From UHGV virus genome UHGV-1794905: a stretch of DNA of 16,627 bases; one strand, written 5' to 3'. Shown here piece after piece: positions 1-16,569 of the stretch. Numbering within the stretch: position 1 is the first letter of the stretch; every line of letters starts with the position of its first letter. The notes under the pieces are model-generated. The model had not been told where the DNA came from. It worked only from the letters and a program-made list of their open reading frames with translations, and ran no database searches. Source of the stretch: a virus. The translations under genes and the position numbers were made by a program.

Positions 1-686
1 CTGCCGAACTGCTCCGAGTCCACCTGTACGCCGACCAGTGCCGTGTTCGGGTAGCACTGTTTCACATCGATGATTTCGGTGTATGACGACCAGAGCGTTT
101 TGTTCTGCAGCTGGTCTGTGGTGCTGTCCGGCGTCATCCTGCGCATCCGGATATTGAACGGGCGCGGCGGCAGGTTACCCACCACCACCGATGCCAGATA
201 CTGCGAGGTGGTTTTGCCCTTAATGGTGATGTCTTTTTCCGTCACCCAGCCACCATTACGCTGTATCTGAACCAGCAGGCGGACTTCCGACGGATTCCGG
301 TCCCCCTTTGAGGTGGTTTCCACCAGTGCCTGCACACCGAAGGTAAAGCGCAGACGGTCGATGTTTGCCGACGTGATGGTCCTGGTAATCGGCGTGTCGT
401 ACTTCACTTCCGTACCCAGCACCGTCTCGGAGCCGGAGGATTCAAATCCCTCCGGCGGTGTCTGCTCCTGCTCACCGGCCCGGAACACCACCGTGACGCC
501 GGATATATTGGTATTCCCCTCACTGTCCAGCACCGGCGTACTGTTCAGCAGCACGCTTTTTAATCCGTCCACCGGACCTTCAACCGGCCCTTCGCTGATG
601 GCATCGATCACACTCAGCAGCTGCGTGGACTTCAGGTTGTCCTTCGCTTCGCGCGGGGTATGCCCCTTACTGCTGCCTTTACCCAT
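1..686 (-). CDS. J: Tail tip / host-specificity protein J, N-terminal 228 codons only; gene continues past the window start
   Basis: ATG at 686..684 preceded by GGAG; translation begins MGKGSSKGHTPREAKDNLKSTQLLSVIDAISEGP..., matching the lambda J N-terminus as I recall it. Frame stays open to position 1. Sits 60 nt downstream of I, as in lambda. Confidence 0.88.
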   Translation of the reverse strand, partial: MGKGSSKGHTPREAKDNLKSTQLLSVIDAISEGPVEGPVDGLKSVLLNSTPVLDSEGNTNISGVTVVFRAGEQEQTPPEGFESSGSETVLGTEVKYDTPITRTITSANIDRLRFTFGVQALVETTSKGDRNPSEVRLLVQIQRNGGWVTEKDITIKGKTTSQYLASVVVGNLPPRPFNIRMRRMTPDSTTDQLQNKTLWSSYTEIIDVKQCYPNTALVGVQVDSEQFG

Positions 687-708
687 TCGTCATGCTCCAT
701 AAACGATA

Positions 709-728
709 AAACCGCCCGGAGGCGGTTT
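709..728 (-). terminator. Terminator-like hairpin in the I-J intergenic gap
   Basis: Minus strand reads AAACCGCC-TCCG-GGCGGTTT followed by TATCGTTTAT; 8-bp stem with a 5-bp GC core and a U-rich tail, about 18 nt after the I stop codon. Confidence 0.4.
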
Positions 729-746
729 CACATAAAACATTTTGCA

Positions 747-1388
747 TCAGCGACCAATCACCACAACCTGACCACCATCCCCTTCGTCTGCCGTGCTGAT
801 CTCCTGAGAAACCACGCGTGACCCCACGCGCATTTCACCGTACAGAACCGGCAGAACATTGCCCTGGGCAACCATGTTATCCAGTGAAGAAAAATAGGTA
901 TTCTGTTTGCCGTTATCCGTTGTCTGTGTGCGGGGGGTTTTGGGTTTAGGGGCCAGCATCTGTGCAACACCGCCAAGCGTCATACTGGCACCGAGAGAAA
1001 ACAGCAGATTACTCGCCATAATTCCTACCCCCGGCATCCATATAGCAACCGCCATAACAGCCGCCCCCAGCACAGCCTGAAACACACCGCCACTTTTGGC
1101 TCCTGCCAGACGCGGCACGATATGGATCACGGCACCATTTTCCAGCGGCTCATTAAGACGGGCAGACAATTCGGTTTCACCTGCATCACGCCCGGCAATG
1201 CGTACCTGGTACCAGCCGTCGCTCAGTTTCTGACGAAATGCCGGGATCTGCATGGCCAGCGCCCGGATGGCTTCGGACCCCGTTTTCACTCGAAGGTCGA
1301 TGCGGCGGCCAAATCGTTGTAAATCCCCGTAAAGGCAGATGCGTGCCATGCCCGGTGACGCCAGAGGGAGTGTGTGCGTCGCTGCCAT
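747..1388 (-). CDS. I: Tail assembly protein I
   Basis: 213-aa ORF beginning MAATHTLPLASPGMARICLYGDLQRFGRR and ending ...SQEISTADEGDGGQVVVIGR, recognised as lambda gpI. Its 5' end overlaps the K 3' end by 103 nt, the same overlap I recall for lambda K/I. Confidence 0.9.
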   Translation of the reverse strand: MAATHTLPLASPGMARICLYGDLQRFGRRIDLRVKTGSEAIRALAMQIPAFRQKLSDGWYQVRIAGRDAGETELSARLNEPLENGAVIHIVPRLAGAKSGGVFQAVLGAAVMAVAIWMPGVGIMASNLLFSLGASMTLGGVAQMLAPKPKTPRTQTTDNGKQNTYFSSLDNMVAQGNVLPVLYGEMRVGSRVVSQEISTADEGDGGQVVVIGR

Positions 1389-2029
1389 TTGTCGGTGTAC
1401 CTCTCTCGTTTGCTCAGTTGTTCAGGAATATGGTGCAGCAGCTCGCTGTCACCACAGTAAATGGCGGCATGATTCGGCACCGATGAACCAAAACAGCACA
1501 GCAGCACATCGCCCGGCTGCGCCGCTGACAACGGCACCTGATACAGCCCTGTGGCCTCCAGATTATCCAGATAGAGATTCTGACCGTTACGCCACCAGTC
1601 ATCCCCGCGATGAAAATCCGGCATCTCAATTCCCGCCAGATGGTAAGCGTCCCGGAACAGCGTGTAACAGTCCGTTACCCCGTGCTCAAAGCGCCGCCCG
1701 GTGAGATGCGGCACACAGCGGAATTTATGAATCGCCCCCCGGCAGACCAGCCACCACGGCAAATCACTCTGCACCTGCAGCCGCCGGTCGGCCTCACTCA
1801 GCCAGGGCAGACCACCGGGGTGGCTGTGGACCAGCGCCACCACCTCACCCTGCATTTCTGCCTGCAGCCAGTCTTCCGGCGACATACGGAAATACGCCTC
1901 CGGCTCACCGGAGATATTCACGCAGGGAAAATATCTTTCCCCCTCCGGCGTTCTCACCACGAAGCCGCACGACTCCGCTGGCGCACATCGTCGGGCGTGC
2001 GCCAGAATCGCTGATTCTGTCTGTGTCAT
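1286..2029 (-). CDS. K: Tail assembly protein K with N-terminal JAMM/MPN metalloprotease motif and C-terminal NlpC/P60-like domain
   Basis: ATG at 2029 lies 4 nt after the L stop (TAATCCCATG coupling). Contains HSHPGGLPWLSEAD, an exact H-x-H-x7-S-x2-D JAMM motif, and downstream Cys/His residues typical of NlpC/P60. The ORF-track start at 2071 overlaps L and is rejected. The classical 199-aa lambda K corresponds to an internal Met (MSPEDW...). Confidence 0.85.
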   Translation of the reverse strand: MTQTESAILAHARRCAPAESCGFVVRTPEGERYFPCVNISGEPEAYFRMSPEDWLQAEMQGEVVALVHSHPGGLPWLSEADRRLQVQSDLPWWLVCRGAIHKFRCVPHLTGRRFEHGVTDCYTLFRDAYHLAGIEMPDFHRGDDWWRNGQNLYLDNLEATGLYQVPLSAAQPGDVLLCCFGSSVPNHAAIYCGDSELLHHIPEQLSKRERYTDKWQRRTHSLWRHRAWHASAFTGIYNDLAAASTFE

Positions 2030-2033
2030 GGGA

Positions 2034-2732
2034 TTACTGCGAAAGTTTGTTAATGGAAAGGAAGCCGCCAAAGTTGCCGACGTTATTGCGGAACTTACAA
2101 CCGCTCAGGCATTTGCTGCATTTATCCTTCGTGATATCGGACGTTGGCTGGTCATATTCATCCGCGACCGCCGGACCGTGATAACCGCACTCATCGCCGC
2201 GATAGGTCCAGGTGCAGGTGTTGGCCAGCATGATACGTCCCGGAAAAACAGCGCCGTCCGTTTCCGTCGGCGTGGACAGTACAAAAGAGGCACTCACCGC
2301 GCTCAGTTCGCTGCACTGCTCGATGCGCCAGCGGCTGATCACCTCCTGCTCCGGATCGGCGTCACTGTTTCCGTTGACGAAGTTCACCGCATCCAGAAAA
2401 CGGGCGTAAACCTTACGCCGGACCACCGTTCCGCCGACCAGACTCTGCAGATCTTCCGCCATCCCGGTGACCATACCGTACAGGTTAGAAACCGTCAGCG
2501 TGGGGCGCGTACTGGTGCCTTTGCCATTCAGTTCGAAACCACTCCCCTGAATGGGATACGCCTGATACTGTCGCCCCTGCCAGGTGACTGGTTCACCTTT
2601 TTCGTTCTGCTCATTACAGAAAAAATAACGTTCTCCACCAACCTCTGTCAGATCGATTTCCCAGAGCACCACGCTGGCCGACTGCTCCGCACGGGTGCAT
2701 TCACTCTGTGTTTCCTGCCGGATATCCTGCAT
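2034..2732 (-). CDS. L: Minor tail protein L
   Basis: 232-aa ORF MQDIRQETQSECTRAEQSASVVLWEIDLTEVGGERYFFCNEQNEKGEP..., near-identical to lambda gpL by recall; its ATG overlaps the M stop codon by 1 nt. Confidence 0.92.
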   Translation of the reverse strand: MQDIRQETQSECTRAEQSASVVLWEIDLTEVGGERYFFCNEQNEKGEPVTWQGRQYQAYPIQGSGFELNGKGTSTRPTLTVSNLYGMVTGMAEDLQSLVGGTVVRRKVYARFLDAVNFVNGNSDADPEQEVISRWRIEQCSELSAVSASFVLSTPTETDGAVFPGRIMLANTCTWTYRGDECGYHGPAVADEYDQPTSDITKDKCSKCLSGCKFRNNVGNFGGFLSINKLSQ

Positions 2733-3061
2733 CAGTTCACCACCTGTTTAAACTCTGCACTGAACTCAACACGCAGCATACTGACCCGCGACGACCATTT
2801 TGCGCAGGTCACCTTTATCTGCCGCCACTCATAAGGCGGCGTCCACAGAAAGGATTTCCAGCCACCGTGCTCAGCCAGAAACGACTCCAGCGCCGTGGCC
2901 TCCCAACGGGGAACAGAAAGCGTCACGCTGTACGTTTTCAGGTCGGCATTCAGCCCGGCAGGCGCTCGCTGGGAGTAACCATCCCCAAAACGCACTTCCC
3001 TGACTAAAGGAGTCGAAGCCACCTCCATACCAGGTTTTACCTTCCAGTGAAACGTTTTCAT
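2732..3061 (-). CDS. M: Minor tail protein M
   Basis: 109-aa ORF MKTFHWKVKPGMEVASTPLVREVRFGDGYSQRAPAGLNADLKTYSVTLSVP..., near-identical to lambda gpM and the same length; ATGA overlap with the H stop. Confidence 0.92.
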   Translation of the reverse strand: MKTFHWKVKPGMEVASTPLVREVRFGDGYSQRAPAGLNADLKTYSVTLSVPRWEATALESFLAEHGGWKSFLWTPPYEWRQIKVTCAKWSSRVSMLRVEFSAEFKQVVN

Positions 3062-6000
3062 CGCCCGCCTCCTGAATACAGTCCGCCATCACGGGACTGC
3101 TGTTGCATAAAGTCCGCTGCCGCTTTTTTCCCGAGATCATAAACCGCCTTCAGGGCAGCCGGACCTATCTGCCCGTTCGTGCCGTCGTTATTGATCTCGA
3201 TGTTGTACTGCGGGGCAAACATCGCCATACCTGAACCACTAATATCCGCCACAACCCCCAGCTTACCGTCAGCACCACGACGCAGTGGCAGAATGGCTTC
3301 AGGTCCAGCTTCCCCCATCACACCCGCGCCTTTTGCAAAAGCAAAAAATGTTGGACGGTTAACCACCGTGCCACTGTAGCGACTCAAATCAGCAGACTGA
3401 TAAACACCGCCATCAGCATTAGCCGTAAAGCCAAATAAAGAACCGACGCCCTTTACCGCCTGCATCATAGTCATCTGCGCCATAATTTTTGCCATATCTG
3501 ACAGCAGGGAAGAGGTGAAGGATTTGAAATTGAGTTTGCCAGTGGTACAGAATGTCGCCAGCCCGTCGCTCGCACTGCTGAATGCCGATGTAAACATTTG
3601 TTCAGCAGTTCCTGCCGCATTATCCGCTTCTGCCGTAAAATTCTGAAACGCACGTATGGCACCGTTTTTCCAGTTACCCTGCACAACTTCAAGCTGTTGC
3701 CAGTAGCGGCGATTCTCATTCAGTTGTCGGTTCAGGCTCTCCGTCAGCGCCTGCTCGGCCTTTCTGTAGTCATCCGTGTTATATGTCCCTTTCTGCTCAC
3801 TATCCCGCCTCAACTGCTCCAGCTGTTGCTGGTATTTCTGGCGAAGACTCAGTTGTACCTGATACCGCTGCCGCAGCTGTTCGCCCATACCCACCGTGGC
3901 GATATCCAGGTCATGTTGCTGACGCTGAGCGCGTTCTTCTTCAGCCAGTTGACTGGTCAGCTGAATTGTTTTTTTCTTCAGCTCGTTGAGTGCCGTCTGC
4001 TTCTGAAGCTCCTGCTGTTTTACATCCAGCAACGTCAGTGCCTGAATCAGTTCATCTTTACGGGCCAGCACACTCTTTTCATCTGCCGTCAGTTTTTTCC
4101 CGTCCAGGTCGCTGATGCGCTGCTGCAGAGCCAGAAGCTGTTTATGCGCTTCTGTCATCCTGTCAGTGGCAATGCCTGCTGACTGTCTGGCAGCAGCAAT
4201 CTGCCCTTCCACCTGTGCCTGTTGCTGACTGTACTGCAGCAATAACCGGGTGGCCTCATCATTACGGGTTTCGCGTGTTTTTTTCTTACCGGATGCCAGG
4301 GCTTTCTCGTAACGTTCATTTTCACGTTGTATCGCCGCATCCCTGACAGCCTGGTCGGCGTACTGCATGGCATTAATACGCGCAATTTCACGCTGATGTC
4401 GTGCTGCTTCCGTTTCATTCATCCGGTTCAGTGCAGCATTTTCAGCATTACGGCGTTTCTGTTGCTCCTGATAATTCCGCTCTGCCTGCTCTTTTGCATC
4501 CAGCAAATCCTTCTGGCGTTTTTTCTCCTGAAGATCGTTAAGACGCTGCTGATCGTACTCCACCTGAGTGGATGAATTCGTCCACGAAAACTTTTTCGCC
4601 CGCTGAATTTTTTCCTGTAAGGAAGCTATCTGCCCATCCAGTGAATCTTCACGACCGATGTTCAGGGCCGCGTCCCAGAAACGGCTCCACAAATCAGACA
4701 GATATTTCAGCGTACTGCCCAGCGCATTAAGATTATTATCAATATCCGCAGTACGCCGACCGGTTTCCTCTGCCAGTGCAGACATAGCTATCCGTGCAGC
4801 ATCACTGGACCGTCCCTGTTCCCCAAGAACGCGTATCTGCTCAAGCTGAGTGGCAGTAAGAAAATGCAGCTCATTGTCCAGAGCCTTCGCGACATTTACA
4901 GGATCATCCTTCAGCCGCTTAAACTGATTTATGGTATCGCTGACCGACTGACCAACCGATCGCTCCATCTGTGCGGCAGCTCTCGCCACCATACCGATAT
5001 CGTTTCCACGAAATGCACCACTCCCCACCACCTGAGCCAACGCACCGGCTGCAGCATGTTGCGTGATACCATTCCCGGAAATAGCACGACTGAGCGTCCA
5101 CAGCTGCCCGGCAGTGACTCCGGCATAATGCCCCGTCAGCGACAGCTGGCGGTTAAATTCTTCCCCCTCCTTCTGACCGTCATACCAGGCTTTACCCAGA
5201 CCATAGACGGCCGCGGCAATACCGCCAATAACCCCGCCCAGCATCATACCTTTCGGTGACATCAGTGTGTCTATCCATCCGGCACGGTTAGCCAGCGTTA
5301 TCCCGGATCCCCTCAGCGCCCCTAAATTGCCGCGGGCCAGTTCACCTATCAGAACGCCTATCTCCCGGCGGGCCGCTGCACTTTTCAGCCCCAGCGAATG
5401 CGTGGCTTTTCCTGCCTGCTCCATTTTGCGGATATACACTTCTGCAGCACTGCTTACCCCCAGCTGGGCAGCCTTAGCACGAAGCAACTCAGAAGAAGAA
5501 AGATTCTGGCGGGTTGCCTGCTCTTTAAGCTGACGGATAAACGCCACTTTCTGTCGGGTGGCCTCTTCCTCAGCCTGTGTAAGAACACGGGTTTTCGCAG
5601 TAACCTCAGAAATCAGCGCCAGATAATCCTGCTGACCAATCCCGCCACTGTTTCTGGCCTGTCGGATCTGCTGCTGAATACGCTGTAATTCCTGCAGCCC
5701 CGCACTGGCCTGTTTCACACTGTCAATCTGACGATAAAACGCGGCAGCCGCTTTATCCTGAGCCTCCGCCAGAGCCATGGCCTGTGCCTGTTCCTCGCGC
5801 ATTTTCTGGCTCAGCACCTCCATGCGCTGGCGGGTTTGCTCCACCTCGCTGGCCATGCGTTCATGAGCCTGTGCGCTCTTCTCCACCGTCTGCGCATGGA
5901 CGGATGCGGCTGTTGCAGCCGAAGAAGCCGCCTGCGTTGTCTGCCGGGCGGCCTGAGTCTGACGCTCCATAAAACGCTGCATACGGGCAGAAGACCGTTC

Positions 6001-6108
6001 TGCATCGCTGGCTGCACCATTCAGAAGGTTTTTGATACGGGGAATTTCATTTTTAAACTCTGCCGCATCAATCCCTAAATCAATGACCAGGTTGGCTATC
6101 TGGTCCAT
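3058..6108 (-). CDS. H: Tail tape measure protein, 1016 aa
   Basis: C-terminus NDGTNGQIGPAALKAVYDLGKKAAADFMQQQSRDGGLYSGGGR matches the lambda gpH C-terminus; N-terminus MDQIANLVIDLGIDAAEF resembles lambda H; long Q/E/R/K-rich coiled-coil centre. Start set at ATG 6108 (GGAGG 9 nt upstream) rather than the ORF-track start at 6138. Confidence 0.9.
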   Translation of the reverse strand: MDQIANLVIDLGIDAAEFKNEIPRIKNLLNGAASDAERSSARMQRFMERQTQAARQTTQAASSAATAASVHAQTVEKSAQAHERMASEVEQTRQRMEVLSQKMREEQAQAMALAEAQDKAAAAFYRQIDSVKQASAGLQELQRIQQQIRQARNSGGIGQQDYLALISEVTAKTRVLTQAEEEATRQKVAFIRQLKEQATRQNLSSSELLRAKAAQLGVSSAAEVYIRKMEQAGKATHSLGLKSAAARREIGVLIGELARGNLGALRGSGITLANRAGWIDTLMSPKGMMLGGVIGGIAAAVYGLGKAWYDGQKEGEEFNRQLSLTGHYAGVTAGQLWTLSRAISGNGITQHAAAGALAQVVGSGAFRGNDIGMVARAAAQMERSVGQSVSDTINQFKRLKDDPVNVAKALDNELHFLTATQLEQIRVLGEQGRSSDAARIAMSALAEETGRRTADIDNNLNALGSTLKYLSDLWSRFWDAALNIGREDSLDGQIASLQEKIQRAKKFSWTNSSTQVEYDQQRLNDLQEKKRQKDLLDAKEQAERNYQEQQKRRNAENAALNRMNETEAARHQREIARINAMQYADQAVRDAAIQRENERYEKALASGKKKTRETRNDEATRLLLQYSQQQAQVEGQIAAARQSAGIATDRMTEAHKQLLALQQRISDLDGKKLTADEKSVLARKDELIQALTLLDVKQQELQKQTALNELKKKTIQLTSQLAEEERAQRQQHDLDIATVGMGEQLRQRYQVQLSLRQKYQQQLEQLRRDSEQKGTYNTDDYRKAEQALTESLNRQLNENRRYWQQLEVVQGNWKNGAIRAFQNFTAEADNAAGTAEQMFTSAFSSASDGLATFCTTGKLNFKSFTSSLLSDMAKIMAQMTMMQAVKGVGSLFGFTANADGGVYQSADLSRYSGTVVNRPTFFAFAKGAGVMGEAGPEAILPLRRGADGKLGVVADISGSGMAMFAPQYNIEINNDGTNGQIGPAALKAVYDLGKKAAADFMQQQSRDGGLYSGGGR

Positions 6109-6807
6109 AACGCACACCTCCGGAAATACCTTCCCCAAGATGCATCAGTTCTTCGTCCGTTCGCTCCGGTATCCCGTTCTCTTCCGGTAAAAGGCTGAAA
6201 TCAGCCACCGCAGCATCACTGCTGCCGGACACCATTCTCACGATCAATGCCTTCAGCGAGGCAAACTGCGCATCCATCCACACATCACTGAAGCTCTGCA
6301 TCCGGAAATAATCGCCCCACTCACCAAGCTCAGTGGCCGACATTTCCGACAACATCCGCCGCCAGTCTGCCCGCCGGAACTCCCGGGCAAGCCGCATGAC
6401 AAACTGCATTTCCCGCGTCAGGACTTTTCCGGCGTCAGCGCCTCATGCTCATCATCCCCGGCATTCTCAATGGCTCCCATACCGCTCAGCGACAGAACCA
6501 TCTCCGCCCCCGCTCCCAGGGCATCATACGACCATGTTGTAATAACGGATGCGCAAAGCGCCTCTACATCCTTAGACTGATCCGCATTCCACAGGGAGCG
6601 GGAAACCAGCCAGGCATTGATATCCATCCCCATCCGCAGAAAAGCAATCTGTCGTTCAGCCTCCGGCAGTTCTCCCTCCCCGGCATCAAACTTTGCCGTT
6701 CGCTGCTGAACAAACGCCAGATATTCAATTCTCTGCAGCCCGGACAGCTCACTGAGCATCACGGACTGTTTTTCATAATTAAACGTGTCCTGTTTCAGAA
6801 ACATCAT
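6080..6807 (-). CDS. T: Tail assembly chaperone G-T fusion, made by a programmed -1 ribosomal frameshift near the 3' end of G
   Basis: The T-frame ORF (…MQFVMRLAREFRRADWRRMLSEMSATELGEWGDYFRMQSF…) lies in the -1 frame relative to G. The T frame is closed by a stop at 6445..6443 and the G frame ends at 6420..6418, so the shift must occur inside 6421..6442, which contains CCGGAAAAG. Exact junction not determined. Confidence 0.7.
6418..6807 (-). CDS. G: Tail assembly chaperone G
   Basis: 129 aa from the ATGATG at 6807 (GGTGGAGAAC upstream); MMFLKQDTFNYEKQSVMLSELSGLQRIEYLAFVQQ resembles lambda gpG (MFLKTESFEHNGVTVTLSELSALQRIEHLALMK). The ORF-track start at 6846 is upstream read-through. Confidence 0.85.
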   Translation of the reverse strand: MMFLKQDTFNYEKQSVMLSELSGLQRIEYLAFVQQRTAKFDAGEGELPEAERQIAFLRMGMDINAWLVSRSLWNADQSKDVEALCASVITTWSYDALGAGAEMVLSLSGMGAIENAGDDEHEALTPEKS

Positions 6808-6820
6808 GTTCTCCACCTGC

Positions 6821-6844
6821 AAAAAAGCCCCGGATAACCGGGGC
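6821..6844 (-). terminator. Intrinsic terminator between V and G
   Basis: Minus strand reads GCCCCGG-TTAT-CCGGGGC followed by TTTTTT: a perfect 7-bp GC stem, 4-nt loop and U6 tract, about 20 nt after the V stop and just before the G ribosome-binding site. Confidence 0.6.
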
Positions 6845-6864
6845 AAATGATGAGTATCGTCCTG

Positions 6865-7608
6865 TTAACCTGCGGCGCTGACAGCCACCGTAGCCACTGC
6901 CACAAAATCGCCGTCAGAAGTCATGCCCACAATGCTGACACTGCCCTGCTTCACGCCTTTCACCGTGGCCACAAGCCCGTTCAGGGTCACCGTGGCAGTC
7001 TGTGGATCTGTCGAATGCACACTGATCGCTTTGTCACTGGCTCCGTCAGGTTTTACTGTAAAGGTCAGCGTGGTGGTTGCTCCCACTTTTACACTGGCAG
7101 ATGCCGGTGCCACCGTCAGCCCGGTAACGCCCACGGTTTCAGTGCCTTCCTCTGCCAGATACGGACGCCCCACACCGCTGATTTTCACTGTGCGGGTCAT
7201 CACGTCTTTTGAGGCAATGGTTTTACCCAGTGAGCTCAGCCAGCCACGGAAAACATCAACAGTGCCGTTGGGATATTTGATACGAAACGCGCAGACTTCA
7301 CCGGAGTCGAACAACTGAACCAGTTTTTTCTGCCCGCTGTCACCCGGACGCCAGGCCAGCGTCGCCGAAGTATCACCGACGGATTTCTGCCCCTGGGTTG
7401 TCGTTTTCCAGTCTGCATCTTCATCATCGAGATAAGTGTCATCTTCTGCATCAGCGGTCATTTCGCCAGGTTGCAGATCCTTCACCATCGCAAGACGCAG
7501 CCAGTCAGTGTCCGATAAAGGGTTCGCAAACGCATCGTCCTTGCCGGTGTACATCCAGAACGTCGTTCCCGCACCTTTCGTTTTTGCCAGTGGATTTGGT
7601 GTGGTCAT
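6865..7608 (-). CDS. V: Major tail tube protein V, with C-terminal Ig-like domain
   Basis: MTTPNPLAKTKGAGTTFWMYTGKDDAFANPLSDTDWLRLAMVKDL...DDEDADW...GQKS.GDTS.TLAW resembles lambda gpV ([45 protein letters not shown]). The T/V/S-rich C-terminal ~90 aa is Ig-like. Start at ATG 7608 preceded by AAGGAGGTGGTA; ORF-track start at 7683 rejected. Confidence 0.9.
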   Translation of the reverse strand: MTTPNPLAKTKGAGTTFWMYTGKDDAFANPLSDTDWLRLAMVKDLQPGEMTADAEDDTYLDDEDADWKTTTQGQKSVGDTSATLAWRPGDSGQKKLVQLFDSGEVCAFRIKYPNGTVDVFRGWLSSLGKTIASKDVMTRTVKISGVGRPYLAEEGTETVGVTGLTVAPASASVKVGATTTLTFTVKPDGASDKAISVHSTDPQTATVTLNGLVATVKGVKQGSVSIVGMTSDGDFVAVATVAVSAAG

Positions 7609-7618
7609 TACCACCTCC

Positions 7619-8020
7619 TTAATTCGTGTACGTGATCTGGTACGTGATTTCCGCCATCGCCCAGGTGGCCATCTCATTATCACGTTGATAGTTAAAACCG
7701 AGTGGGTTCAGGGTGTCGATGAGTCCGGAAAGGGCCGGCATATCACTCAGGGCCGGAAAAATGGTGCTCTCCATCCACGTATCCAGCTCCGAATCCGGTG
7801 CCTGTGCCCGGATGAAGACGGCAATATGCAGAACAGCCTGCCAGTCATCTTCATCCGTCATTTTTCCGGTGTACTGTGCATCACTCAGCCACACCGCCAC
7901 AGCAGGCAGTTCCTGCGCATCAATAAATGCCGGAAGCCCGTCAAAAAACGTGGCGCTGTCTCCACACTGTTCCCGAAGGCGTGCCAGTACGACCTGGCGA
8001 ATTTGTGTATGTCGGTTCAT
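7619..8020 (-). CDS. U: Tail terminator protein U
   Basis: ...ATFFDGLPAFIDAQELPAVAVWLSDAQYTGK...WQAVLHIAVFIRAQAPDSELDTWMESTIFPALSDMPALS matches lambda gpU (GATFFDGRPAVFDEADFPAVAVYLTGAEYTGE...DSELDAWMESRIYPVMSDIPALS). Start chosen at ATG 8020 (ATGA coupling with the Z stop); the in-frame ATG at 8032 is an alternative. Confidence 0.85.
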   Translation of the reverse strand: MNRHTQIRQVVLARLREQCGDSATFFDGLPAFIDAQELPAVAVWLSDAQYTGKMTDEDDWQAVLHIAVFIRAQAPDSELDTWMESTIFPALSDMPALSGLIDTLNPLGFNYQRDNEMATWAMAEITYQITYTN

Positions 8021-8595
8021 CGGGTCAGCCATAACCTCAGTTGTTGTTTCAGTGCATACCCCAGTTGCTTCGGCATTTCCGCAGTAATGATGCGGTCGCG
8101 GGCATCTTCAAATGCCTGTGTCAGCGGTCCGGACAGCGGGATTTTCACCACATCAATGGGGTAACGATTTTTGCCATCAATACGCCGCATCACATGCCAG
8201 CGACCATTCGCCAGCTGCTGAATAAACGCATCCCGGAAAAGATATTTACCCACCTTCAGCACACTGCCACGGTACTGCAGTTTTCCACCACGCCGGGCCA
8301 GTCTGACCTGGGCCGTCCCCAGCTTAATGGCGGGCAGGTTGCCCCGGTTAACGCGGATCCTGGCCGTCATTTTTCCTGACGGACTGGCTTTAAACACCCG
8401 GACACGCTGACGTACCAGTTTCAGGGGTATCCCTTTCACCTGGTTATCTCCCGCAACGGTATTCCCGGCAACCTGCCGGGTGGCAACCGAGACCGCTTTC
8501 TGCGCCACACGGTTTATCGCCCATGCGCTGGCCTGTGGCACCATACGGGTATCAAGGCTGTTCAGATTGCGGATGGCATTCTCAAGCCCCTTCAT
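8017..8595 (-). CDS. Z: Tail completion protein Z
   Basis: 192 aa, the same length as lambda gpZ; MKGLENAIRNLNSLD...AWAINRVAQKAVSVATRQVA...RIRVNRGNLPAIKLG...FIQQLANGRWHVMRRIDGKNRYPIDVVKIP...LGYALKQQLR aligns with lambda Z motif by motif. GAGGTG ribosome-binding site 5 nt upstream. Confidence 0.9.
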   Translation of the reverse strand: MKGLENAIRNLNSLDTRMVPQASAWAINRVAQKAVSVATRQVAGNTVAGDNQVKGIPLKLVRQRVRVFKASPSGKMTARIRVNRGNLPAIKLGTAQVRLARRGGKLQYRGSVLKVGKYLFRDAFIQQLANGRWHVMRRIDGKNRYPIDVVKIPLSGPLTQAFEDARDRIITAEMPKQLGYALKQQLRLWLTR

Positions 8596-8606
8596 CCCAC
8601 ACCTCT

Positions 8607-8882
8607 TTACTCAATAAAGATCATTGGCTTACCGTTAAAGCGTTCATGCCGTGTGACCGTCCATTGTTGTCCGTCATAAACAACGCGATCCCCGCGCCGT
8701 GGGCGGTATCCCGAAGAAAACACCACCAGAGAGACCGCAGGTCCGGACAGAGCATTCAGCTCTGCCAGTGTTTCTCCCGGGATCACTGTCATATCGACAT
8801 CATTAATCGAGGCTGTCTTTCCCATCTTTCTGACCGTGATCGCATCCATACGCGCTGCCAGCCGGGAAAAGGGATCAGACAT
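8607..8882 (-). CDS. Head-tail connector (head completion) protein, FII-like
   Basis: 91 aa in the position of lambda FII, between the head genes and Z. Weak similarity to gpFII: RRGDRVVYDGQQWTVTRH versus RRGDTLTIGEENFWVDRV. Start overlaps the upstream gene's stop by 8 nt. Confidence 0.55.
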   Translation of the reverse strand: MSDPFSRLAARMDAITVRKMGKTASINDVDMTVIPGETLAELNALSGPAVSLVVFSSGYRPRRGDRVVYDGQQWTVTRHERFNGKPMIFIE

Positions 8883-9198
8883 TGAGTTTTACCGGCACTT
8901 CTTCTGCACTGGTTCCGGCATCTGCCCAGACAACCCCGACCAGCGGATCAGAGCCGCTGTTCGTCAGCTGAACTTTTCCGGATTTCAGATAAACCTTCTT
9001 ACCGGTTTTCATATCATCCGTTTTCAGTTTCGGCAGCATAAATACACCTTCAGTCATACCGTCCCCAATTTCGCCTTTTGCAATATCGGTCAGTGCCACA
9101 GCAAAAATATCGCCCACCTGTACCAGCTCTCCGCTACTGATATTTGCACCAGCGACAATCTCCACCGTTTTCCCGTCTTCCACAAAATTCTTTGCCAT
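8875..9198 (-). CDS. Small head-associated protein, possible capsid decoration/cement protein (DUF2190-like)
   Basis: 107 aa from ATG 9198 (GGAGACAGTT upstream); Gly/Val-rich beta-type sequence directly downstream of the capsid gene. Not lambda gpD-like. Family assignment is from memory only. Confidence 0.5.
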   Translation of the reverse strand: MAKNFVEDGKTVEIVAGANISSGELVQVGDIFAVALTDIAKGEIGDGMTEGVFMLPKLKTDDMKTGKKVYLKSGKVQLTNSGSDPLVGVVWADAGTSAEEVPVKLNV

Positions 9199-9211
9199 AA
9201 CTGTCTCCACA

Positions 9212-9262
9212 CAGCCCCTGAACGGGGCTGATTTCAGGTACAAAAAAAGCCCTTACGGGCCA
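9212..9262 (-). terminator. Terminator plus second hairpin downstream of the major capsid gene
   Basis: Minus strand reads GGCCCGTAAGGGC followed by TTTTTTT (9262..9242), then CAGCCCC-GTTCA-GGGGCTG (9230..9212), about 22 nt after the capsid stop and just before the ribosome-binding site of the next gene. Confidence 0.55.
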
Positions 9263-13010: not shown

Positions 13011-15106
13011 AACCATCCTCCGGATGTCACCCAGGGGTTATCCTCATCGGGTGCCATTTTTTTTCGTTTCTTTTTTCTGGCCGGGGGACGTTCCGGCTCC
13101 GGCAGAACAGGTGGCTCCGCGTTGTCACTGACACACTCCAGCCAGGTTTCCCGGTACGCCCACTCCGGCGCATCAGGCCACTGAATTTTCTCGTACCCAT
13201 GCAGAATGACCAGCGCCTCGGCATACACCATCAGGTCAAAGGCTTCGTTCGCACCGCGCCCCGGCTTACTCCATTTCCCGTCACTGCTCCGCTCTTCATA
13301 CGTCAGTTCGTCGTAAAACCAACTCCCCAGCCAGTCGGGAAAATGCACATAGCCAGGACCGGGAGAATCACGCCATAACGCGTTATTCACCCGGTCTTTC
13401 AGAACGTCAGTCTGAAGAAGCCAGAGAGGCACATCACCCGCAGCCTGCGCCCGTCGCCCCGTTCGTCCGGTGTTATCCGGAAATGTACGGGTTATCAGTT
13501 TTGCACGTCGGATACTGTCGCCCTTAAACAGGTAAATACGCTTGCCAAGACCATCAAGACGGCAACGACGCCAGAATTTATAGGCATTATCGGTAACCCC
13601 GTCTTCACCGCCGGAGTCCACCGCCATTGCCATTACCCGCATGCGCTGAGAAGAGTCAGAAACCAGCGGCCAGCCTTTATGAAAAACATCCGTCAGCAGA
13701 ACATCCCAGTCTTCCGGATAACCGGCGGGATCAATACGCAGGCTTTCTCCGTTATTGTCACAACGCAGCGACTGCGTGATGTTGTAACGATCAACTATCC
13801 AGCGCTCGCCGCGACTACCATAGCCCGTTACCTGAACCACAAAACGGCGATGGCGTCCCGCCTGCACATCCACTGTCGCTACAAGGAAATTTACGCCATC
13901 CGGCACACTGCGGGGAGGAACTGGCTCTGCACGTTGCTCAAGCAGTTCGCTTTTTCGTTGCTCCATGCTGGCGCGGGGAAGATAAGGTAACCCCCAGTCA
14001 GTATTGATAACCGCCTTGAGAGTTTCTTCGCTTCCGGTTGCCTCGTATTCCTGTTCAGCGGTCAACAACTTATAAATCAGTTGCGCCCAGGTCTGATAAG
14101 CGGCAGCGGGTCCCTCCATCCAGAAGCTGGCTATCCTTGATTGACGTGGCATTCCGGTAACATTCCCTTCCATGTCAATCTGCTCACCATCCCGTAACCA
14201 GACCCCGCGCCCGTTCAACTCACGTTTCATGTCTGCGGTGATTCTGGAGCCACAATGAGGACATAATATATGGGCCGCTTTACTGGCTTTTACAGGATCG
14301 GGATTGTCACGGTACCCCGTCATGGCCTCCATGGAGGGTTGAAAATACCCCCCGCAATCCGGACAGGGCCAGTACCAGCGACGACGATCACCACGGTTAT
14401 AAAGTGACAGGATCCCCGTGGTGGGTGGAGCTTCATGTGGAGAGGTTTTTCGCCACTTACTGTCCGAAATTTCGCGTCCAGGTGAACTCTCCACAAGAGT
14501 CATACCTGCTGACATAAACGTCGTGGTACGTTTTGAAGCCAGGGAGAAACCATCACCTTCACCATCAATATCATCAGGCCAGCGGTCATAATCTGTTAAG
14601 GCAACAAATCTATAATCAGATGACGACATAATATTGACTGAGGGCCAACCAATCTTTAGATAATTACCCGCCTTAAAAGTCTTATCATGAACGTTGTTAT
14701 CATTGGTTCGTGGACTCATTCGCCGTGCGACTTCTTTACTGACCCGAAATGTGCGATCAAGACGTTTTCTGGAATGCTCTCTTGCTTTCTCTTCTGTCAT
14801 TTGAATTAACAAAAAATCTGCAGGCTCACAAACCACGCTGTATACAATCCAGCCATCAATTAACCCAACCGTTTTTCCTGTTCGTGCTGGCCCGACAAAA
14901 ACAACCGCATCATAGTCACGGGAAGACAAGCAATTCATTGGCTCAATGATATAAGGCGTCAAAGATGCATCCCATGGCAATGAACTTCCCCCGCCCAGTG
15001 GTACTCGCATATATTTCTCAACCGCTTCTGCCACTGGCATTCTTGTGGGGGGTTTTAGCAATTCGGAAACATCACGCCTGATAGCACTTGCTGAGGCAAA
15101 AACCAT
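13007..15106 (-). CDS. Terminase large subunit (lambda gpA family), 699 aa
   Basis: Walker A-like VFVGPARTGKT near the N-terminus; Cys-rich WYWPCPDCGG...HILCPHCG segment; ATG overlaps the small-subunit stop (TAATG). C-terminus is basic (ARKKKRKK). Confidence 0.88.
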   Translation of the reverse strand: MVFASASAIRRDVSELLKPPTRMPVAEAVEKYMRVPLGGGSSLPWDASLTPYIIEPMNCLSSRDYDAVVFVGPARTGKTVGLIDGWIVYSVVCEPADFLLIQMTEEKAREHSRKRLDRTFRVSKEVARRMSPRTNDNNVHDKTFKAGNYLKIGWPSVNIMSSSDYRFVALTDYDRWPDDIDGEGDGFSLASKRTTTFMSAGMTLVESSPGREISDSKWRKTSPHEAPPTTGILSLYNRGDRRRWYWPCPDCGGYFQPSMEAMTGYRDNPDPVKASKAAHILCPHCGSRITADMKRELNGRGVWLRDGEQIDMEGNVTGMPRQSRIASFWMEGPAAAYQTWAQLIYKLLTAEQEYEATGSEETLKAVINTDWGLPYLPRASMEQRKSELLEQRAEPVPPRSVPDGVNFLVATVDVQAGRHRRFVVQVTGYGSRGERWIVDRYNITQSLRCDNNGESLRIDPAGYPEDWDVLLTDVFHKGWPLVSDSSQRMRVMAMAVDSGGEDGVTDNAYKFWRRCRLDGLGKRIYLFKGDSIRRAKLITRTFPDNTGRTGRRAQAAGDVPLWLLQTDVLKDRVNNALWRDSPGPGYVHFPDWLGSWFYDELTYEERSSDGKWSKPGRGANEAFDLMVYAEALVILHGYEKIQWPDAPEWAYRETWLECVSDNAEPPVLPEPERPPARKKKRKKMAPDEDNPWVTSGGWL

Positions 15107-15606
15107 TATTCCTCCTCATCATCTCTTTCTCTCATTTCAGTTGATAATGCCTCACGGATATCATCAACTGCTCGTTGAGCCTCAGCGATTTGTGATGCAT
15201 TCCAGCCCCGATCTCGCTCCAGTTTGTCAGGCCACGTATCCAGTACCTGAGTAACAACCTTCAACATCAACGCCATTTCGCGATGCACGTCACTGGCAGG
15301 AACAAGTTGTTTTAATGTTGTTTCCATCTTGATACGTTCGTTTTCTGACTGGAACCAGTCTTTACGCTCTTTCGGTTCCATTCGTGACGGATCATGTATA
15401 TCGGAATCAATGACTGATTTACTCTCAAACAAAGCAGGTCCGACATCTCTCAATGCATAAACAGGATTACCACGAACGGTGCCGGCAACAGGGATATTGG
15501 CCTCCAGCAGTCTTTTTTTAACCACCTTTCTGTCCATAGCAAAGGCTTCTGCGATTTTCGCGATACTCCAGCGATAAACGTCTCCGATATTACTGATATT
15601 CGACAT
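15106..15606 (-). CDS. Terminase small subunit (Nu1-like DNA-recognition subunit)
   Basis: 166 aa from ATG 15606 (GAGGTGGGG upstream); N-terminal helix-turn-helix-like segment (DVYRWSIAKIAEAFAMDRKVVKKRL), acidic C-terminus, immediately upstream of and coupled to the large subunit. The ORF-track start at 15612 is a GTG. Confidence 0.8.
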   Translation of the reverse strand: MSNISNIGDVYRWSIAKIAEAFAMDRKVVKKRLLEANIPVAGTVRGNPVYALRDVGPALFESKSVIDSDIHDPSRMEPKERKDWFQSENERIKMETTLKQLVPASDVHREMALMLKVVTQVLDTWPDKLERDRGWNASQIAEAQRAVDDIREALSTEMRERDDEEE

Positions 15607-15789
15607 CCCCACCTCTTCACACCAGCTCGAATATCATTTTTCTTTTTAAAAACAGAATATTAAAAACTGGTCAGATGTCCCACAAAAAGCAAAATTGGAC
15701 AGGTGAAAATCAATTTTTATTTTACTTTTCAACATGTTAATTGATGTGGTGGTGTCCCATGAAAATTCAAAAACTAGCCGTTTTCCGCG

Positions 15790-15801
15790 CCGCTCCCGCC
15801 C
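15790..15801 (-). other. Candidate cosN cohesive-end site
   Basis: Minus strand reads ACG-GGGCGGGAGCGG-CGCGGAAAACGGCTAGTTTTTGAATTTTC, which aligns with my recollection of the lambda cos region (ACG-GGGCGGCGACCT-CGCGGGTTTTCGCTATTTATGAAAATTTTC). It is a GC island in an AT-rich gap about 185 nt upstream of the small terminase start. Confidence 0.5.
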
Positions 15802-15915
15802 CGTGGCAAGGGTACCCCACCGGGAGGACCCGCAAAATGAGAGCGATTATCATTTGTACACACTCTAACACCTGCATTATCGCAGCTCCTCGCTGAAGGG
15901 CTGCTGTAATGCATG

Positions 15916-16215
15916 TTACTCAGTAACAACTGCGCCTTCCGGTAATTCCATACCGGCAAATACCGGACAACCAGGATGACGATCATCTTCTGTTGCTTCC
16001 AGCATTGACTCACCAAACCACTCCGTCGTGGCGCGACCATCAGCAGCTTTGTAGTGGAGTAAGTACTGGTTTTCGCCATCCGCATACTGCGCGCGGGCTT
16101 TAACCTCACCCCATTCATCACTGATGCGCATCTCCACCAGTTGAGACAACTCAAACTTAAACGGGACAGCAGCGGCACCAATTACAATCGGTTTGTTTTC
16201 TGTTGTTTCCATCAT
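15916..16215 (-). CDS. Hypothetical acidic protein, 99 aa
   Basis: ATGATG at 16215 with AGGAG 5 nt upstream; MMETTENKPIVIGAAAVPFKFELSQL..., no transmembrane segment, acidic. Lies on the operon strand upstream of cos. No family recognised. Confidence 0.55.
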   Translation of the reverse strand: MMETTENKPIVIGAAAVPFKFELSQLVEMRISDEWGEVKARAQYADGENQYLLHYKAADGRATTEWFGESMLEATEDDRHPGCPVFAGMELPEGAVVTE

Positions 16216-16386
16216 CGTCTCCTGATATCGAAGCCCGTCGCCGCACCGGGCACTGATCAACATTTGAGTATTCGCGGCGACAGAAAGAATTTATTTTATT
16301 GAGTAGCCACAAACACAGAATTTCATGCTTTCCGGACGCTGACTCATCCTTCATTTTTCAGCAAAATATTCTGCTCTTATAGGCGA

Positions 16387-16569
16387 TCAGTTCTGCAGAC
16401 ACTGCCGAACACCGTCGACAATTTCACAGACCTGAGAAGCTGTATCGAAAAGCTGGCGCGCCTTATCCAGACTGACGCATCCCACCAGAAAAAAAGGCAC
16501 CAGTATCGCTACCAGTGCCCATTTCGCCGCCGTTCGCGGCATTCTGTGCGTCCAGTGTTTTCTGCTCAT
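16387..16569 (-). CDS. Small predicted lipoprotein, 60 aa
   Basis: Signal peptide plus lipobox (AAKWALVAILVPFFLVGC); predicted mature peptide about 30 aa with three Cys. AGGTG 6 nt upstream of the ATG. The same frame stays open to the window edge, so a longer product cannot be excluded. Confidence 0.5.
   Translation of the reverse strand: MSRKHWTHRMPRTAAKWALVAILVPFFLVGCVSLDKARQLFDTASQVCEIVDGVRQCLQN

Follow-up and report, generated by a model that had tools for sequence, protein, structure and literature searches.

The DNA analyzed here (hereafter, the window) is a 16,627-nt (16.6-kb) stretch of the virus genome UHGV-1794905 that carries the late operon for the head and tail of a lambdoid phage or prophage, with all genes on the minus strand. 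The closest relatives of the window are phi458, mEp460, Ayreon, and cdtI, with approximately 95% identity over the tail region. Gene starts, which were set from start codons, Shine-Dalgarno (SD) sequences, and the mEp460 annotation, leave intergenic gaps of 13, 86, 11, 10, 57, 4, and 60 nt, in that order; the remaining junctions overlap. Three gaps exceed 13 nt, namely, those between the gene for a ClpP-protease/major-capsid fusion and the gene for a cement (decoration) protein (86 nt), between V and G (57 nt), and between I and J (60 nt). An earlier reading of the sequence (the original prediction) had singled out exactly these gaps and had placed in each of them a GC-rich hairpin followed by a U-run on the coding strand. 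Both statements were confirmed, with the hairpins beginning 23 nt (capsid), 20 nt (V-G), and 18 nt (I-J) after the stop codon. No open reading frame (ORF) fits in the 57-, 60-, or 86-nt gaps of the window, and the hairpins do not flank an inserted gene as moron terminators do.

The three hairpins have the sequence features of intrinsic terminators. Their stems are perfect and GC rich (5, 7, and 8 bp for capsid, V-G, and I-J, respectively), and all are located beyond the stop codon with room to fold behind a terminating ribosome. A spacer of approximately 20 nt is close to the expected footprint of such a ribosome, so the stem could still form. U7 follows the capsid hairpin and U6 follows the V-G hairpin, but the I-J tract is weaker, with UUU within the stem and then the interrupted UAUCGUUU. 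Free energies, the calculation of which had been proposed as a check, were -8.3 (capsid hairpin 1), -16.2 (V-G), and -17.4 (I-J) kcal/mol. The capsid-gap and V-G U-runs occur on the coding strand alone; both sites are thus oriented with the operon, and a reading of them as opposite-strand terminators was rejected, while the I-J hairpin has merely a weak U3 on the other strand. A lenient scan of the coding strand of the window for hairpins with T-tails yielded 17 sites, of which 3 fall within the 203 nt of the gaps and 14 within the 16.4 kb outside them, which corresponds to a probability of approximately 2e-4 that each of the three gaps would hold a site, with the caveat that capsid hairpin 1 is weak (4 to 5 bp) and the I-J U-tract is interrupted. 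A generic terminator scan independently picked up the sites at 6844 and 9261. The three gaps share one layout, consisting of the stop codon, a spacer of 18 to 23 nt, the hairpin, a U-run, the SD sequence, and the AUG. This cassette needs approximately 57 to 60 nt, which explains the lengths of the V-G and I-J gaps, and in the 86-nt capsid gap the same cassette is extended by an AU-rich linker and another hairpin (hairpin 2).

To place these sites in a broader context, the capsid fusion protein was compared with one genome per species, which led to approximately 55 loci with full-length homologues (42 to 91% identity) from Enterobacterales, Pasteurellaceae, Pseudomonas, and other taxa. ORFs were labeled by similarity to the window proteins, and the 78 nt after each stop codon were scanned for a terminator-like site. 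Such a site follows the capsid gene in 49/57 loci (86%), gene I in 14/30 (47%), and V in 9/37 (24%). The corresponding frequencies are 16% for M, 14% for L, 13% for H, 7% for the portal gene, 6% for K, 4% for the cement gene, 2% for Nu1, A, and U, and 0% for W, FII, Z, and G. The hairpins, whose conservation in related prophages had been proposed as a check, are conserved well beyond chance, the capsid one most of all; the V-G and I-J hairpins are lineage specific. The distance from the stop codon to the capsid hairpin ranges from +6 to +32 in the relatives. The Pasteurellaceae and Pseudomonas loci have unrelated hairpin sequences at the same place (in Pasteurellaceae, a single long hairpin), which indicates that the position is conserved without the sequence.

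The capsid gap of Enterobacterales, in whose prophages the element is widespread, has a fixed order of parts: an unconserved spacer, hairpin 1 (GCCC-N4-GGGC), U7, a linker (AUAYCURAAAU), hairpin 2, the SD sequence GGAG, and the cement AUG. Column identities are 0.2 to 0.4 in the spacer, approximately 1.0 in the hairpin 1 stem and U-run, 0.6 to 0.9 in the linker, 0.3 to 0.6 in hairpin 2, and 0.9 in the SD sequence. The GCCC/GGGC stem is invariant across 29 enterobacterial loci, and U7 is invariant across genera. The sequence of hairpin 2, on the other hand, turns over (at least 14 different stem sequences), but per-sequence folding recovered the structure in 22/22 distinct relatives, with 6 to 10 contiguous bp in 21 and an interrupted stem in Fels-1, and its end is always 0 to 3 nt from the SD sequence. 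RNAalifold predicted both helices, with compensatory double changes at 5/5 consensus pairs of hairpin 2 (for example, one pair is CG in 14 sequences, UA in 7, GC in 5, and AU in 1). Column-based pair counting on a covariance-model alignment scored hairpin 2 no better than shuffles, and a +1 slide scored higher, because variation in stem and loop length lets the register slip; it was replaced by per-sequence folding and RNAalifold. A covariance model of the element gave one strong match per locus (55 to 84 bits). The DNA pattern GCCCN4GGGCT7N3YCTRAAA matched at least 120 IMG/VR contigs; among the matches listed, all 117 that were testable adjoin the 3' end of a capsid homologue, in 58 distinct versions. 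These comparisons indicate an old capsid-gap element that is maintained by strong purifying selection. Rfam 15 covariance models, compared with both strands of the full window, gave no match at E <= 1. The likeness to 3' stabilizers or processing sites is anatomical only, in that the gap consists of a hairpin and an AU-rich single-stranded stretch between two hairpins, conserved across genera. A helix in which the YCU of the linker pairs with the SD sequence and sequesters it was considered but not adopted, as the predicted pairing is weak and inconsistent between sequences. The loop of hairpin 2 is GUUCA in the window, whereas most close relatives have its exact reverse complement, UGAAC. Among 76 IMG/VR loci, 58 have the commonest gap form with UGAAC, and GUUCA occurs in only 1. 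The loop looks as if it had been flipped between the inverted-repeat arms.

The V-G hairpins occur in few lineages (mEp460-like phages, Fels-1, Providencia, and Edwardsiella), with differing stems. The hairpin is kept without a good U-run in Fels-1 (where the run has decayed to UUUG), Buttiauxella, and Symbiopectobacterium, which favors a role of the hairpin itself over strict termination. Variants among close relatives affect loop-proximal pairs only. In most phages with the same V/G/T/H order (including lambda, phi80, Proteus, Rahnella, Citrobacter, and Pasteurellaceae), the hairpin is absent and the gap is <=15 nt. A search with the V protein found 80 IMG/VR loci, which are 98 to 100% identical; they were used for polymorphism counts only, being useless for covariation. 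Post-I hairpins show sequence turnover between tail types, and the I-J core ACCGCC/GGCGGU recurs in Fels-1 and Edwardsiella with other loops and flanks. A U-run abutting the next SD sequence was also found between D and E of lambda and phi80 and after gene I in phi80-like tails. A larger fold was predicted around the I-J hairpin, in which the upstream AUGUUUUAU pairs with AUGGAGCAU, which contains the J SD sequence, so that the SD region is paired with an upstream UUUU. The same fold was predicted for lambda, and, if it forms, it might damp J translation.

Model phages share parts of this arrangement. Lambda (L084) has a canonical terminator-like hairpin with U7 between D and E (5126-5180) and a hairpin with a U-rich tail between E and FI (6207-6247); these flank D and E, whereas the hairpin of the window lies between the capsid fusion and the cement gene, in a different type of head module. 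The stem of the lambda I-J hairpin is identical to that of the window and of mEp460, with the loop UGCG instead of UCCG, but lambda lacks the V-G hairpin (15-nt gap). In phi80, the stem of the D-E hairpin differs slightly from that of lambda, and the E-FI and V-G junctions are tight. Fels-1, whose head type matches that of the window, retains capsid hairpin 1 but has another loop in it. Several of these junctions hold additional genes. In Fels-1 (L082), a reverse-strand ORF with its own terminator (15837-16361) follows I, and the conserved I-J hairpin comes after it, still just upstream of J; a lom-like gene between M and L has terminators on both flanks. Phi80 (L083) carries morF between I and J (15095-15628) and a terminator between M and L. 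In two Providencia loci (L102 and L109), the V terminator is separated from G by a 1.3-kb insertion with an ORF that starts with MNNIIPLEYQGHPVRFN.

Table 1. Genes and RNA features of the window (plus-strand numbering; genes are given as start>stop)
Feature	Position	Strand	Free energy	Remarks
Nu1 (small terminase, DUF1441)	15606>15106	-		
A (large terminase)	15106>13007	-		
W-like	13010/13016>12798	-		
Portal	12798>11293	-		
ClpP-protease/major-capsid fusion	11279>9285	-		PF00574 + PF25209
Cement/decoration protein	9198>8875	-		Pfam PF09956 Phage_cement_2, E 2e-20
FII-like	8882>8607	-		
Z	8595>8017	-		
U	8032>7619	-		
V	7608>6865	-		
G	6807>6418	-		T via frameshift
H	6108>3058	-		
M	3061>2732	-		
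L	2732>2034	-		
K	2029>1286	-		
I	1388>747	-		
J	686>beyond window	-		
Capsid-gap hairpin 1	9261-9248	-	-8.3 kcal/mol alone, -9.7 with flanks	GGCCC-GUAA-GGGCU, short GC stem and tetraloop
U7	9242..9248	-		directly 3' of hairpin 1; first U pairs with G9261
Linker	9231..9241	-		GUACCUGAAAU, AU rich, single stranded (consensus AUAYCURAAAU)
Capsid-gap hairpin 2	9230-9212	-	-14.8 kcal/mol, z -4.4	CAGCCCC-GUUCA-GGGGCUG; without U-run; ends 3 nt before SD
Cement SD and start	9196..9208	-		GGAG 9208-9205; AUG 9198-9196
V-G hairpin	6844-6827	-	-16.2 kcal/mol, z -3.8	GCCCCGG-UUAU-CCGGGGC, 7 GC pairs
U6 after V-G hairpin	6821..6826	-		3 nt on, SD GGUGGAG 6817-6811; G start 6807
I-J hairpin	728-709	-	-17.4 kcal/mol, z -4.8	AAACCGCC-UCCG-GGCGGUUU
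I-J tail, SD, and start	684..708	-		UAUCGUUU (interrupted, U rich) 708-701; SD GGAG 698-695; J AUG 686-684
Extended I-J fold	684-740	-	-23.2 kcal/mol, z -4.1	AUGUUUUAU with AUGGAGCAU
Looser hairpin + U-rich sites in coding sequence	11137-11110, 1525-1493, 12640-12611, 12302-12278	-		
Hairpin + U7 upstream of Nu1	16520-16495	-	-15.6 kcal/mol	inside 60-aa ORF
60-aa ORF	16387-16569	-		lipoprotein-like signal (LVPFFLVGC)
cos-like sequence	15780-15850	-		CCACGGGGCGGGAGCGGCGCGGAAAACGGCUAGUUUUUGAAU, G rich

Terminator-like hairpins in phage late operons are of a known and partly annotated kind. In T7, the major capsid gene 10 is followed directly by the terminator T-phi, with read-through feeding the downstream structural genes; T-phi acts on T7 RNA polymerase with a measured efficiency, whereas the sites of the window are predicted only and face an antiterminated host polymerase. 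The record of mEp460 (NC_019716/JQ182728), in which the capsid-gap and V-G hairpins have the same sequences as in the window (approximately 95% identity), labels "rho-independent terminators" at 6334-6353 and 8751-8774, both of which are predictions, as well as after J, after lom, and inside T; it has no labels for the I-J hairpin, capsid-gap hairpin 2, or the conserved linker. In the P22-like phage L, an intrinsic terminator was predicted after the procapsid gene module within a single-promoter, antiterminated late operon, and its authors considered either partial termination or the halting of non-antiterminated transcription, stating that the role is not known (PMC8022706). The head module and sequence of phage L differ from those of the window, and the two-hairpin layout is not described there. 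In Cluster O mycobacteriophages (Corndog), a predicted stem-loop with a U-rich tail directly follows the major tail subunit gene within the structural operon (PMC4351075), but the host, polymerase, and sequence are unrelated to those of the window. Leaky terminators have also been described as a means by which phages balance expression, with T7 cited as an example (PMC9163698). Terminator-like hairpins within late operons have thus been reported recurrently.

The reading that we favor, with slightly more confidence than doubt, is that the hairpins are leaky terminators and 3'-protecting structures coupled to independent ribosome binding sites (RBSs), with the capsid element being an old and selected one and the V-G and I-J hairpins being lineage-specific terminators at junctions that accept morons. 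During lytic growth, most antiterminated polymerases would read through, and the hairpins would act mainly after transcription. Leaky termination, or endonuclease cleavage in the AU-rich stretch, would generate 3' ends that the hairpins shield from 3' exonucleases, and, thus protected, the capsid and V segments of the mRNA would reach higher steady-state levels. The U-rich tract, together with hairpin 2 abutting the SD sequence in the capsid gap, would provide the uncoupled downstream gene with an efficient start site of its own. In the lysogen, the same hairpins would stop polymerases lacking antitermination, a function that the V-G and I-J hairpins probably have. This is close to the fallback of the original prediction, which took the hairpins for processing or stability elements on the grounds that late transcription is antiterminated; that fallback is viable and is the version we prefer, so that the earlier interpretation as a whole is partly supported.

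Several points weigh against the reading that we favor. Termination, processing, and stabilization at the hairpins are all steps that we infer. Hairpin 1 is very short (4 to 5 bp; -6 to -8 kcal/mol) and may be a poor terminator or exonuclease block, and the invariance of its sequence, not just of its structure, hints at a specific factor outside the model. Any benefit of the V-G and I-J hairpins must be dispensable, as they are absent in many relatives with the same tail, and the conservation of the I-J hairpin within the E. coli lineage is little informative, since its flanks are conserved there as well. The invariant sequence of hairpin 1 and the conserved linker are not fully accounted for by the model and leave room for an endonuclease site between protective hairpins, a platform for ribosome standby or S1, or a dedicated factor. 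A tentative extension is that the capsid-cement element, approximately 65 nt long, is a dedicated ancient cis-regulatory RNA of the head module and not merely a terminator. Such an RNA could serve as the place where the late mRNA is cut, with both halves stabilized and cement translation set, or it could be recognized by a specific factor of the host or of the phage.

The original prediction had preferred a different role, in which the hairpins end a sizeable share of late transcripts after the two most abundant virion proteins and thereby set stoichiometry, keeping the capsid and tail tube high and the chaperone, tape measure, and J low. The sites do resemble canonical terminators (most of all the V-G hairpin, with 7 GC pairs and U6), two of them follow abundant proteins, and the capsid site is kept in most loci. 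Leaky termination also has the T7 precedent (PMC9163698), and partial termination is among the options raised for phage L (PMC8022706). We nevertheless consider this role unlikely and found the stoichiometry claim unsupported, because five results go against it. The absence of the V-G hairpin from most relatives with the same stoichiometric need means that it cannot be a general means of keeping G, T, and H low. Gene I encodes a low-copy assembly protein, yet it is followed by the second most frequent site. In lambda and phi80, a hairpin of this kind separates D from E, whose products are required at a ratio of ~1:1. The capsid hairpin precedes the cement gene, although decoration proteins are generally high-copy, and a terminator is rare after the cement gene itself. 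Lambdoid late transcription is antiterminated by Q and reads through intrinsic terminators, and the relative expression of the lambda late genes was reportedly found by Sampson et al. in 1988 to be set by translation initiation. Chance inverted repeats without function in short, AT-poor gaps are scarcely credible; looser sites occur in the coding regions of the window too, but the low in-window probability, the conserved positions, and the covariation of stems across genera effectively refute this explanation.

Between these extremes are accounts that each cover part of the data. In one of them, the V-G and I-J hairpins (and perhaps the capsid hairpin as well) may be insulators that stop non-antiterminated prophage transcription, or leftovers or landing pads of inserted morons, with little lytic role. 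This is a possible but less probable account than the one we favor. It accommodates the inserted genes found at the same junctions in Fels-1 and phi80 (I-J) and in Providencia (V-G), the M-L terminators beside the lom-like gene of Fels-1 and at M-L of phi80, and the sporadic occurrence of hairpins across lineages, and terminators have been proposed to halt transcription begun without antitermination (PMC8022706). It leaves unexplained the near-universal capsid element, the selection at the sequence level, and the covarying hairpin by the SD sequence, and none of the three gaps of the window contains an inserted gene. We assign a similar, minority standing to the view that the capsid gap is a translation-initiation module. 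U7 and the linker would form an S1 or standby platform, hairpin 2 would expose or tune the cement SD sequence, and the terminator-like look of hairpin 1 would be secondary. Consistent with such a module, hairpin 2 keeps its distance from the SD sequence despite full sequence turnover, the linker and U-run are conserved in sequence, the downstream cement gene is abundant and not translationally coupled, and the other gaps, like lambda D-E, have U-runs that abut the SD sequence. However, the Pasteurellaceae relatives have only the single long terminator-like hairpin, the module does not account for the invariant GC hairpin 1, and the predicted linker-SD pairing is weak and inconsistent. A further account, in which the gaps produce an Hfq-binding small RNA (sRNA) from the 3' untranslated region that ends in the hairpin and U-tail, as other prophage sRNAs do, is improbable. 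A terminator hairpin with poly-U is the standard Hfq-binding module, and lambdoid prophages encode many Hfq-bound sRNAs (PMC4104026; Pas sRNA preprint). However, the sRNAs whose context was checked (AgvB/AsxR, PasA, PasC, and PasD) are located in the PR'/Q-lysis region, outside the three gaps, the spacer from the stop codon to hairpin 1 is unconserved and thus offers no candidate seed, and the Rfam search of the window gave no match. The ArcA-modulated sRNA-17 of E. coli K1 lies in an mEp460-like prophage, in an intergenic region of >1 kb outside these gaps (PMC7719688).

Other features of the window were also recorded. Fairly stable hairpins with U-rich tails occur within coding sequence, namely, in gene K, in the portal gene, and in the part that encodes the protease domain. 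The hairpin with U7 upstream of the small terminase gene was left out of the count because it lies in coding sequence and not in a gap; the 60-aa ORF that contains it has a lipoprotein-like signal and no Pfam match. A G-rich, cos-like sequence is also located upstream of the small terminase gene, and a sequence resembling it follows a capsid-like match in three loci (L118, L138, and L151). The window is mosaic relative to mEp460 (L001), with protein identities of 37% for Nu1, 81% for A, 78% for the portal protein, and 54% for M; V, Z, and FII are 98 to 100% identical to those of mEp460, and M is 91% identical to lambda M.

From a single long transcript, phage late operons produce proteins in quantities that span orders of magnitude. 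The comparative data narrow the options for the role of the hairpins, arguing against simple attenuation as the means of setting stoichiometry. The tail-gene hairpins coincide with insertion sites of extra genes, and the compact cassettes of a terminator and an RBS are potential natural parts for tuning expression within an operon. The capsid-cement junction carries a strongly selected two-hairpin element that can serve as a marker for where the capsid gene ends within a common prophage head module and is suited to mutational tests; this bipartite element may be the one aspect of the locus that deserves description and experiment.

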